This document shows, one piece after another, positions 15,001 to 18,000 of a stretch of DNA of 64,000 nt (positions are counted from its first letter, which is position 1; each line of letters opens with the position of its first letter). The position numbers are program-made. Origin of the DNA: Candidatus Lloydbacteria bacterium RIFCSPHIGHO2_02_FULL_50_18 (lineage in GTDB: Bacteria > Patescibacteriota > Minisyncoccia > Phycocordibacterales > UBA6899); assembly GCA_001821395.1 (NCBI GenBank), contig MHLM01000014.1:32001-96000 (forward strand). The letters are read 5' to 3'.

Positions 15001-18000
15001 TATTTTTCACATCTAAGGTTGGTGACGCGTTCATCCTTGAGAGTTTTAATTATCGCTTAACGGTAGACAACAAGATCGAGGATGTTTTCATAGAAAGATC
15101 GACTCAAAGAAAAAAGGGAACGAGGGTCACTTTTCAAATACAGACAACGACCTCACTGCATCTTGGTGACGTGTTTAGAAAGTATACGAATATCGGGGAT
15201 GAGAGCGATTATGGATTTGATAAGACCGAAGTTCGCGTCAACCTCTACACATCTCTAGGAGTGCACATTTCACGCTCACAAGCACGCAGAATTCTTTCGG
15301 GCTTGGAAAAATTCAAAGTCATAGTTTTTGATTTCGACAAAGTGTCGGTGGTTGGTCAGGCATTTGCGGATGAGATCTACCGTGTCTTTGCTCGCAAATA
15401 TCCGCACATTACCCTTCAGGAGGTCAACATGTTTCCTGGAGTACGTTTCATGGTTGAGCGTGCGAAAAATGAGGCAAAGAAAACCGCGCAGTAGGGGAAA
15501 GGGGAATTCCTCGCGCGTGCACAATCCCACGGTAGTTGAGGTAATCCCACGCGATCATTATCTTCGCTCGTAGTGCTCAAACGTTTCTTCAAGTCCCTGA
15601 TCAAAATTTTTCAGCGGTTTCTAGCCGAGTTCCTTCGTGGCCTTGCTTGAGTCGAGGGCATAGCGGATGTCGTGGCCGAGGCGGTCGGTGAGACGAGCTT
15701 TACTTATCGTATATAATCGAATACAATCAAATGTACTAAATATATATGAAAGAACGCTTCCAAAAACGCATACCCATTTCGCAAGAAATACTCTCAAAAA
15801 TAACCCAGATCGATGAGCTGAAGGGGCACTGGAAAGGGGGGCTCGCCATCAGTCCGCAGATATTGGGTCGGCTCAAAAAATCCGTCATTATCACCAGCAC
15901 GGGTGCATCGACGCGCATTGAGGGATCGAAGATGACCGATGATGATGTCGAGCGGTTTTTGAGGGCGCTTAAGTCAAATCCACCCGAGAATCGCGATGAG
16001 GAGGAGGTCGCAGGTTATGCCGACCTCCTGGGTCGTGTGTTTGATAACTGGCAAAGCATGAAGCTCTCCGAGTCGCTCATTCTCTCTTTCCACGGCGTCC
16101 TTCTTCGTTACTCGAAGAAGGACGGGCAGCATAAGGGGAAATATAAGACAAAAGAAAATCTTGTTGTTGCTCGTAATTCAGAGGGCGAACAGGTGACGAT
16201 ATTCGAACCGACACCGCCCTGGCTTACAAAAAAAGAGATGGACGATGTGCTCTATTGGACACATGAAGCAATGGCTGGAAAAAAGCTTCACCCCCTTCTT
16301 GTTACTGCAAATTTCATTTTTGAATTTCTTGCCATCCATCCATTTTCTGACGGCAACGGTCGACTTTCTCGAGCGATTACCAATCTTCTCCTTCTTCAAT
16401 CCGGGTATGGGTATGTGCCGTATGTTTCATTGGAAGAAATCATTGAAGAAAGAAAAGATGAGTATTATTCCTCACTTCGCAAAACGCAGAAATATCACAA
16501 AACAAAAAACGAAGATATTAGTGCATGGCTCAGTTTTTTGCTGGATGTATTACTCGTGCAAGCAAAGAGCGCTAAAGAAATCATGGAGAATGACGATCCT
16601 ACAAAATTGCTTTCTGGGCGCCAAATTGAGATCTATGCACTCTTCGGGCAAGATGCACTTGCGGTGCTTGATATCAAAAAGAAGCTTAATGCTATTCCAG
16701 AGGTAACGATCAAGCAGGTGCTTGCGAGGCTTGTTTCACTCAGATTGATCGAACGGATCGGCCTGGGAAGAGCGACGCGGTATGTAAAATCAAAATAGTA
16801 TTGATACCGACTTAGTCATGGTATCGTCCAGCCACGATATTATTTTTTGCCATCTTTGTAGTGGGCGAATGTTTCTTCGATCCCTTGCTCAAAATCCTTA
16901 AGCGGTTTCCAGCCGAGTTCTTTTGTTGCCTTGCTCGAGTCAAGCGCATAGCGTATGTCGTGGCCGAGGCGGTCGGTGACGTATTCGATCATTTCATCGC
17001 CGAGTCCCGCGAGCGCGATGAGTTTTTTTGTGATATCGATATTCTCGATCTCATTGCCTCCGCCAAGGTTGTAAATTTCTCCCGCCCTTCCGTCGTGGAA
17101 TACGCGGTCAATACCTGAAACGTGGTCGCTGACATGTATCCAGTCACGGACGTTCTTGCCGTTCCCATAGAGAGGGACTTTTTTCCCGGCGAGCAGGTTT
17201 GAGATAAAGAGGGGGATCAGCTTTTCCGGAAACTGATTTGGGCCATAATTGTTCGAGGCACGCGTGGTGACCGTATCGAGCCCGAAGGTCCTGTTGTATG
17301 AGCGCACAATGAGGTCTGCAGAGGCCTTTGAGGCGCTGTAGGGGCTATTGGGGGCGAGGATATCGTCCTCTGTGCTTGCTGCGGCAGCTGCGCCGAGTGA
17401 GCCGTAGACTTCATCGGTGGAGACAAAATGAAAACGCTTCACCCCATATTTCCTTGCGCACTCGAGGAGGTTTTGCGTTCCGAGGACGTTGGTCTCGACA
17501 AAGATGCCGGGCCCGGTGATCGAGTTATCAACGTGGCTTTCCGCCGCGAAGTGAATGACATGAGTCGGTTTATATTCTTCAAAGATCTCCGCAAGTTTTT
17601 TTGCATCGCGTATGTCGGCTTTAATGAACGCATAATTGGGAAGCGTTGAGACGCTGATGTTGTTGAGGTCGGCTGCGTAGGTGAGCGCATCAAGGTTAAC
17701 GAATTGATAGTTCGGATATTGGGGTATGGCAAAATTCAGGTAGTTACTCCCAATGAACCCGGCACCGCCCGTTACGAGAATGGTCTTGTCGTAGGTCATA
17801 TTTATTGGGCTTTGGGTTTTTCACTAAGATGTTTTTCCTTCATGTAATTTGAGGCGGTCAGGAGACTATCGAACGTGCCGATGTCGAACCAGGCGCCCTT
17901 CACGCTTTCCGCCCTGAGCGTGCCTTCATCGACATAGCGATTGTTTACCCAGGTGATCTCGTATTCCCCGCGATCGCTTTTTGGCTGACCCTCCATTTTT

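Follow-up and report, generated by a model that had tools for sequence, protein, structure and literature searches.

Here, we show that the 3' end of rfbB, the gene for dTDP-glucose 4,6-dehydratase, is a hot spot for the serial insertion of defence- or addiction-type genes in a lineage of Candidatus Lloydbacteria. The window analysed is a stretch of 64,000 nucleotides (nt) from Candidatus Lloydbacteria bacterium RIFCSPHIGHO2_02_FULL_50_18 (GenBank assembly GCA_001821395.1, contig MHLM01000014.1, positions 32,001 to 96,000 of the forward strand), and the element in question is a truncated second copy of the rfbB end at 15558-15691, hereafter relic 1. It is a fragment of an rfbB pseudogene and is unable to encode a functional enzyme. 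With moderate confidence we read it as a relic of serial insertion in which the incoming DNA would have been joined by homology-dependent recombination. Hot spots of this general kind are known, and in this lineage they are little described. Lloydbacteria belong to the Parcubacteria, within the candidate phyla radiation (CPR), whose bacteria have very small genomes and few known mobile elements; little is understood of the ways in which they gain genes for defence and addiction. The rfbB locus provides one concrete route, in which single genes are inserted repeatedly at the conserved end of a sugar gene that is apparently restored each time by an imported end. The features of the window on which the argument rests are the following.

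16840-17799, minus strand: intact rfbB, encoding a dTDP-glucose 4,6-dehydratase of 319 amino acids (aa), with Pfam matches to GDP_Man_Dehyd (2e-83) and Epimerase (3.5e-68).
16840-16979, minus strand: H0, the present rfbB 3' end, made up of the last 137 nt and the stop codon, which is the copy homologous to the relics.
15692-16839, plus strand: Fic cassette, with a coding sequence at 15746-16798 for a SoFic-like protein of 350 aa, followed by 41 nt of spacer that hold a small hairpin and lead up to the rfbB stop.
15558-15691, minus strand: relic 1, a 5'-truncated, dead rfbB 3' end holding the last 44 codons and the stop (TAA 15558-15560), from blastn, tblastn and translation.
15667-15691 = 16955-16979, minus strand: perfect 25-nt identity block TCACCGACCGCCTCGGCCACGACAT, encoding (V)TDRLGHDI and lying directly against the 5' edge of homology in relic 1.
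14333-15557, plus strand: HATPase_c-DUF4325 cassette (Pfam), with a coding sequence at 14436-15494 for a protein of 352 aa.
14184-14332, minus strand: relic 2, an older displaced rfbB 3' end (ending in ...GRRVRYAPDSSKAIKELGWKPMKNFDQGLAETFAHYRDNIK and a stop), orthologous to relic remC of the sister genome described below.

The minus-strand translation of 15540-15692 reads LTDRLGHDIRYALDSSKATKELG, a stop, KPLKNFDQGLEETFEHYERR and two further stops. At the nucleotide level, 15570-15691 aligns with 16858-16979 of the intact gene at 83.6% identity over 122 nt (blastn, E 1e-32), and a tblastn search with the window's own RfbB recovers relic 1 at E 4e-26. An earlier note on this DNA had described 22 residues identical to RfbB that run into an in-frame TAG, a 25-nt identity block and a sharp end to the rfbB similarity, and all three descriptions are borne out. 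The shared residues are TDRLGHDIRYALDSSKATKELG, and the codon after them has changed from TGG to TAG (15621-15623), turning a tryptophan into a stop. The identity block lies where the list above places it, and it belongs to a 34-mer (15658-15691) that is found again at 16946-16979 with 1 mismatch, where 0 matches are expected in shuffled sequence. The edge of homology falls exactly at 15691, with relic 1 reading ...AAAGCTCGTC/TCACCGACC and the intact gene ...ATCGAATACG/TCACCGACC (the slash marks the edge). Upstream of this position the two sequences are unrelated and relic 1 is without any similarity to rfbB, leaving only 44 of the 319 codons. The identical arrangement is present in three independent assemblies (L001, L002 and L003) on contigs of 159 kb, 187 kb and 52 kb, and hence it is not an assembly artefact.

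Relic 1 is part of an array. Starting from rfbB, the order is rfbB, the Fic gene, relic 1, the HATPase-DUF4325 gene, relic 2 and the flippase gene wzx, and rfbB is alone among the genes of the 64-kb window in having 3' relics. Both inserted genes are convergent with rfbB and each has its own promoter-like site in a promoter scan (TTTACT-17-TACAAT at 15699-15727 for Fic, TTGACA-18-TACAAT at 14395-14424 for HATPase-DUF4325). The Fic protein matches Pfam Fic (4.9e-15) and PADLOC SoFic (1.9e-42), the HATPase-DUF4325 protein has no match to any defence model, and the two proteins are unrelated (BLASTP E 0.76). Relic 2 has a full reading of 14184-14332, of which blastn recovers the segment 14203-14299, and is interrupted by a 24-nt insertion at 14300-14323. 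The array also accounts for two short "hypothetical genes" in the annotation, which are explained as rfbB relics or as antisense open reading frames (ORFs) of them: a 58-aa gene that some assemblies annotate at 14172-14348 on the plus strand is a mere antisense of relic 2, and relic remC is annotated in the sister genome as a 60-aa gene (15322-15504).

That sister genome, L087 (GCA_043719805.1), encodes the closest other RfbB found (83% identical) and has, upstream, the syntenic order Wzy_C, rmlD, a 325-aa gene, His_Phos, rfbA and rfbB. It holds an array of its own, with three relics.

L087 13238-13354: remA, colinear with relic 1.
L087 14547-14663: remB.
L087 15337-15501: remC, orthologous to relic 2.

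These relics separate one cassette of three genes (84 aa, 127 aa and an LCAT-like gene of 1040 aa), one with an HATPase-DUF4325 gene of 351 aa, and one with ParE and Phd. Window positions 15661 to 14380 are colinear with L087 13251 to 14511 at 74% identity over 1289 nt, a stretch that spans the HATPase cassette together with relic 1/remA, and the flanking core genes of the two genomes are 75.5% identical. Because the two values are so close, the HATPase cassette and the adjoining relic predate the species split. As this cassette is ancestral, the Fic cassette in the lineage of the window and the LCAT cassette in that of L087 were added later and independently, in both cases beside rfbB. Relic 2 and remC are 78% identical over 123 nt and share the same 24-nt insertion, while their outer flanks differ. 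For the ParE/Phd cassette together with remB, the flanks (13/22 matches) are too diverged to tell an insertion in L087 from a deletion in the lineage of the window.

The pattern of divergence between the copies shows what kind of sequence they once were. Over a 90-nt core, relic 1 and the intact end have 19 differences, of which third codon positions account for 15 (p = 6e-5 versus an expectation of 1/3), and when five relics are pooled, each compared with its own intact gene, 63/87 differences are at third positions (p = 1e-13). The relic cores have at most 1 stop codon each and no frameshift. This third-position bias, together with the nearly open cores, indicates that the copies diverged mostly as the ends of functional genes. 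The intact end is equally distant from relic 1 (19 differences) and from the orthologous relic of L087, remA (19 differences). Given divergence as functional alleles, the present rfbB end was probably imported with the Fic gene and displaced the earlier one. More generally, the sequences suggest that each insertion imported a different functional rfbB end, with the current one arriving together with Fic. Identity between the rfbB genes of the window and L087 is 77-81% upstream and 70% over the last 90 nt, a drop that is not significant, and a search for a mosaic breakpoint within the intact gene (90-nt segments, seven sequences) gave no significant signal.

The copies also exchange sequence. 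From its 5' boundary, remB matches the intact rfbB of L087 at 55/55 nt and then mismatches at 14/49 (Fisher 8e-6). The perfect 55-nt tract (8839-8893 in intact rfbB, 14551-14605 in remB) joins copies that are not adjacent. As remB is probably at least as old as the HATPase cassette beside it, which predates the species split, the most natural reading of a flawless tract in a relic of this age is that homologous conversion took place recently. Likewise, remA and remC are 95% identical over 78 nt, each closer to the other than to its own orthologue. Both observations indicate that the repeat copies interact by homologous recombination, and we regard conversion between them as ongoing. An identity tract abutting the end of homology, as seen in relic 1, is the expected look of a conversion tract.

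Close relatives were gathered by protein search and contig look-ups. Empty sites were found at six loci (L088, L089, L173, L174, L175 and L183) with RfbB proteins 75-83% identical to that of the window and representing five RfbB variants; here rfbB is directly followed by other convergent genes and no relic is present. The content downstream of rfbB differs in L087, L088, L089, L173, L175 and L183. RfbB scans of genome and metagenome contigs, with relatives of 50-66% identity among the matches listed, were used as negative controls only, and no truncated relic was seen at approximately 160 rfbB loci of unrelated bacteria, where four second matches are full-length paralogues. Taken together, the empty relatives and the relic-free distant loci show that the rfbB-end relics are lineage-specific and far from a chance pattern. 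The RfbB protein of the window is identical on 16 contigs. A pre-insertion allele, that is, an rfbB ending like relic 1, was not found in the 90% cluster, whose two members both have the current end.

The inserted genes themselves are found in many other places. Fic homologues of 71-84% identity are present on many contigs, mostly short. In five other contexts the DNA homology runs from the -35 box to the stop codon (it starts at 15697/15698 and ends at 16788-16800, at most 10 nt from the stop), and no rfbB fragment is seen in the flanks of these homologues (77-84% identical). No flanking gene-end relic of any kind lies beside the Fic gene in L170-L172 and L176-L182. Viral contigs have no match to the repeat (searched as a degenerate 32-mer) nor to relatives of the Fic or HATPase proteins. 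Both cargo families are very widespread: among the best 120 matches, identities are 63-84% for Fic and 61-81% for HATPase-DUF4325, and these matches span many CPR lineages as well as metagenome-assembled genomes named Nitrospirae, Deltaproteobacteria and Margulisiibacteriota. The HATPase-DUF4325 gene is widespread also outside the CPR. Many cargo matches are on contigs only 1-3 kb long, a pattern suggestive of assemblies that break at these genes and of genes that often move horizontally.

The earlier note had taken the abrupt end of homology for a recombination junction and the 25-nt block for a candidate core of an attachment (att) site. The first part holds, since relic 1 lies between two inserted genes and is colinear with a relic of the sister genome. 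The second is not supported, given that the block lies in a conserved stretch, the junctions do not coincide and no recombinase was found in the DNA examined. Across seven clade members the block has a mean pairwise identity of 86%, compared with 73% gene-wide, and ranks 26 of 951 windows; the copy in relic 1 matches the rfbB of two other species, L087 and L088, at 24/25 positions. The block therefore sits in an rfbB stretch that is among the most conserved at the DNA level, which points to ordinary gene conservation and provides no specific support for an att site. Nor is its perfection within relic 1 statistically exceptional: there are 20 mismatches across the 122 nt, and the best breakpoint reaches p = 0.012 before correction for approximately 100 positions, so the mismatch-free first 25 nt do not stand out. 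Hence, an att core should not be called from a sharp homology end and a neighbouring identity block alone.

A common crossover sequence among related genomes, which the note had proposed looking for, did not emerge from the junction comparison. Counted from the Ala codon of ALDSS, the junctions are at -32 (relic 1), -27 (remC), approximately -15 (remB) and -2 (remA), and the two most recent events, one per lineage, are 30 nt apart (-32 versus -2). The four are clustered and not coincident, which speaks mostly against an att site. As at att-type sites, direct repeats of the rfbB 3' end flank the inserts, and rfbB is intact in both the window and L087; there is no recombinase gene seen in or near the element, no single shared boundary and no link between repeat and cargo elsewhere. 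Neither the cassettes nor window ORFs of at least 150 aa nor the called genes of the 17-kb L087 locus yielded an integrase, resolvase or transposase domain, in a search that did not extend to the remainder of either genome. Three repeat copies examined on both strands show no attC-like fold (z -0.56 to 1.14 versus shuffles). We rejected an integron array, which would have an intI gene, an attC fold and promoterless, co-oriented cassettes: no integrase and no such fold were found, and the cassettes here have their own promoter-like sites and are convergent with rfbB. There is no GC-skew switch near 15 kb, the skew being positive across nearly the whole window, and a dif/Xer site of the kind used by integrative mobile elements exploiting Xer (IMEX) was rejected, as there is no skew switch and the insertion site is inside a coding sequence.

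In the explanation that we favour, a self-contained SoFic-like Fic gene, convergent and with its own promoter, would have inserted into the rfbB end and pushed the old end downstream. The incoming DNA would have supplied the last 105-137 nt of rfbB as a different functional allele, which now completes the gene, while the displaced end, having lost its reading-frame partner, would be decaying (TGG to TAG) as relic 1. An earlier insertion of the same type, of the HATPase-DUF4325 gene, would have left relic 2, and the process would have been repeated independently in L087, with its three relics. Joining may have occurred by general homology-dependent recombination on the conserved TDRLGHDIRYA-coding stretch, without a dedicated integrase. 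It could have taken the form of a one-sided homologous anchor combined with an illegitimate joint, or of recombination (double crossovers) between the repeat copies of arrays in related strains.

Several points weigh against this explanation. RecA-type recombination is inefficient at approximately 80% identity, no donor turned up in which rfbB adjoins Fic, and the array-bearing species compared are two. The four junctions lie within 30 nt of each other (P approximately 1.5e-4 if uniform gene-wide, approximately 0.03 within the last 150 nt), and such clustering is not predicted by a purely illegitimate joint and is predicted by a recombinase recognition region. The cassettes are very compact, with only 6-7 nt between the junction and the -35 box of Fic. 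Compactness and clustering would both be accounted for by a recombinase acting in trans, and the recombinase search described above was confined to the window and the L087 locus.

The likeliest of the rival explanations is site-specific integration, in which the conserved stretch at the rfbB end would be an attB site and small cassettes bearing an rfbB-end attP would be inserted by a tyrosine or serine recombinase supplied in trans. The cassettes would then resemble integrase-less cis-mobilizable elements (CIMEs) in accretion arrays. The topology is the classical one, with repeats of the target's 3' end flanking the inserts, an imported end that restores the gene and the newest insert adjoining it, the junctions are clustered in the most conserved block, the cassettes are compact single transcription units, and there is a precedent in the tandem ssrA islands of Dehalococcoides, 15 of which are without integration modules (PMC3146451). 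Despite this, we consider site-specific integration rather unlikely: no integrase was found in the cassettes, the 64-kb window or the 17-kb L087 locus, the identity block is explained by ordinary gene conservation, close Fic homologues are found in five other contexts without an rfbB fragment, and neither block nor cargo is found in viral contigs. Moreover, the recent independent junctions are at -32 and -2, with others at -27 and approximately -15, whereas the Dehalococcoides repeats share one 20-bp boundary (PMC3146451). A bolder variant, which we put forward as speculation with little expectation that it is correct, is that the rfbB end is the entry point of an integron-like capture system that stacks single-gene defence or toxin-antitoxin cassettes. 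Each cassette would bring an rfbB-end copy as its recombination site, with the recombinase encoded elsewhere or replaced by a programmed homologous process; on this equally speculative footing, the system would be a new way to build a defence islet in tiny CPR genomes.

Tandem duplication of a unit of rfbB end plus downstream gene, followed by replacement of one cargo and decay of the extra ends with no foreign allele, would fit the similar lengths of the window units (1288 and approximately 1370 nt) and of their proteins (350 and 352 aa). We think it very improbable, as the cargo proteins are unrelated and the promoters differ, which excludes duplication of the unit, and as 72-79% of the copy differences are at third positions, unlike the decay of a duplicate, which excludes simple duplication of the target followed by decay; in addition, relic 1 and remA of the other species are equally distant from the intact end. 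Just as little credence is due to the idea that the relic is retained for a function, either as 3' untranslated region or terminator of the HATPase gene or as a plus-strand antisense RNA against the end of the rfbB mRNA. Each convergent cargo gene does run into a copy of the rfbB end, the plus strand of the intact end has a weak terminator-like hairpin at 16903-16915, and 25-34 nt of near-perfect complementarity to rfbB would permit pairing. However, terminator-like sites are not in excess (4 versus 2.8 in shuffles), there is no structure signal (z 0.2-1.1), the relics diverge, gain stops and insertions and differ in their boundaries, and no upstream plus-strand gene reads into relic 2. An assembly artefact, such as a chimeric contig joining strains with different rfbB alleles, might be suspected because the source is metagenome-assembled and several short contigs (L004-L006) break inside the Fic gene, but its chance is negligible in view of the identical arrangement on long contigs of three independent assemblies and of the analogous array with a colinear cassette in L087. 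A second Fic variant, with a protein 84% identical, is present on contigs of 1.4-1.6 kb (L176-L179, of which L178 is from the sample of L001), and its co-occurrence probably explains the contig breaks.

The upstream regions of both cargo genes have features of possible regulatory importance. That of Fic (15698-15745) holds a conserved -35/-10 pair and approximately 3 tandem copies of a unit of approximately 10 nt (ATCGTATATA); its DNA is kept in the five other Fic contexts and, judged by its sequence, may be an operator for autoregulation. A perfect palindrome, TTGTCAATTATTTGACAA, at 14385-14402 overlaps the -35 box of the HATPase-DUF4325 gene and is kept in L087 (approximately 14487-14504). 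It is probably an operator, because the protein has an N-terminal match to a DIP2311-like regulator domain.

The array lies in a surface-polysaccharide cluster whose members include rfbA, rfbB, wzx, GT4, Wzy_C and rmlD. Two of its genes border the rfbB locus.

17802-18554, minus strand: rfbA, glucose-1-phosphate thymidylyltransferase, the upstream partner of rfbB (Pfam NTP_transferase, 1.3e-54).
12823-14088, minus strand: wzx-type polysaccharide flippase, the first gene on the rfbB strand past the array (Pfam Polysacc_synt, 1.3e-14).

Past the array, window positions 8001-14000 hold polysaccharide genes (a methyltransferase, GT4, a FemAB-like gene, a 307-aa gene and wzx). Their G+C content is 43-46%, compared with approximately 50% in the rest of the window, and they are without a counterpart downstream of rfbB in L087, which suggests that this part of the cluster has also been exchanged. 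A His_Phos gene and its neighbour of approximately 325 aa (window 18735-20466) are upstream of rfbA in the window and in L087 but downstream of rfbB and convergent with it in L175 (3511-5258) and L183 (1680-3437). With this pair on opposite sides, the rfbAB pair has been rearranged between these relatives. The listed ORF at 19255-20466 (TTG start) overlaps His_Phos, and its actual start is probably later. In L087, a 3073-aa toxin-like gene of the SpvB / RHS-repeat / FG-GAP type (positions 1-1084) lies upstream of rfbB at a distance of 7 kb; the matching region of the window does not have it.

Integrative and conjugative elements (ICEs) as well as CIMEs are known to accrete at the 3' ends of genes, for example at fda in Streptococcus thermophilus. 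Tandem genomic islands are found at the 3' end of ssrA in Dehalococcoides (PMC3146451), and the CIME concept is mentioned in PMC7563491. The rfbB array resembles these systems in its serial inserts, which follow a conserved gene and are each delimited by a direct repeat of that gene's 3' end, in units without a recombinase, in its strain-specific content and in the syntenic neighbouring core. In the ssrA and CIME systems the repeat is a fixed 20-27 bp, there is one insertion point and many islands have a serine or tyrosine integrase module, whereas the rfbB array has repeats of 105-137 nt with four 5' boundaries, no recombinase found and single-gene units of approximately 1.3 kb.

In O-antigen and other polysaccharide clusters, gene remnants and junctions inside rml genes have been documented (Reeves et al. 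2013, PMC3715488; PMC5399914). The present locus is similarly in a polysaccharide cluster, with a junction in an rml gene, remnants of past exchange and variable content beyond. In contrast to those exchanges, no sugar or transferase genes are among the inserts, which comprise SoFic-like Fic, HATPase-DUF4325, ParE/Phd and LCAT-like genes, and a single gene end has been copied several times over in tandem. A parallel in process may be effector swapping in Pseudomonas aeruginosa, for which a breakpoint that predominates at the vgrG 3' end has been described and homology-facilitated illegitimate recombination proposed (PMC11751169). There, a conserved gene end is a one-sided anchor and a foreign allele of that end arrives with the cargo, as may also be the case at rfbB. 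However, the vgrG-type process usually replaces the neighbour without stacking, and no array of displaced anchor ends was described (PMC11751169).

The displaced ends themselves resemble those of rhs and cdiA in the fate of the conserved coding fragment and in the homologous recombination among fragments. What varies in rhs and cdiA, however, is a toxin domain at the C terminus of the gene product itself, while in the rfbB array the gene keeps a conserved end and a separate, convergent gene is what varies. In the orphan arrays of rhs and cdiA, an old end is displaced by a new end with its partner gene, and the fragments of upstream coding sequence that are kept recombine with each other. Integron arrays, finally, share the stacking of single-gene cassettes, often toxin-antitoxin or Fic/Doc, at one entry point with a repeat between them. 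The rfbB array differs from them in that no IntI gene and no attC-like folded repeat were found, the cassettes have their own promoters and they face the entry gene.

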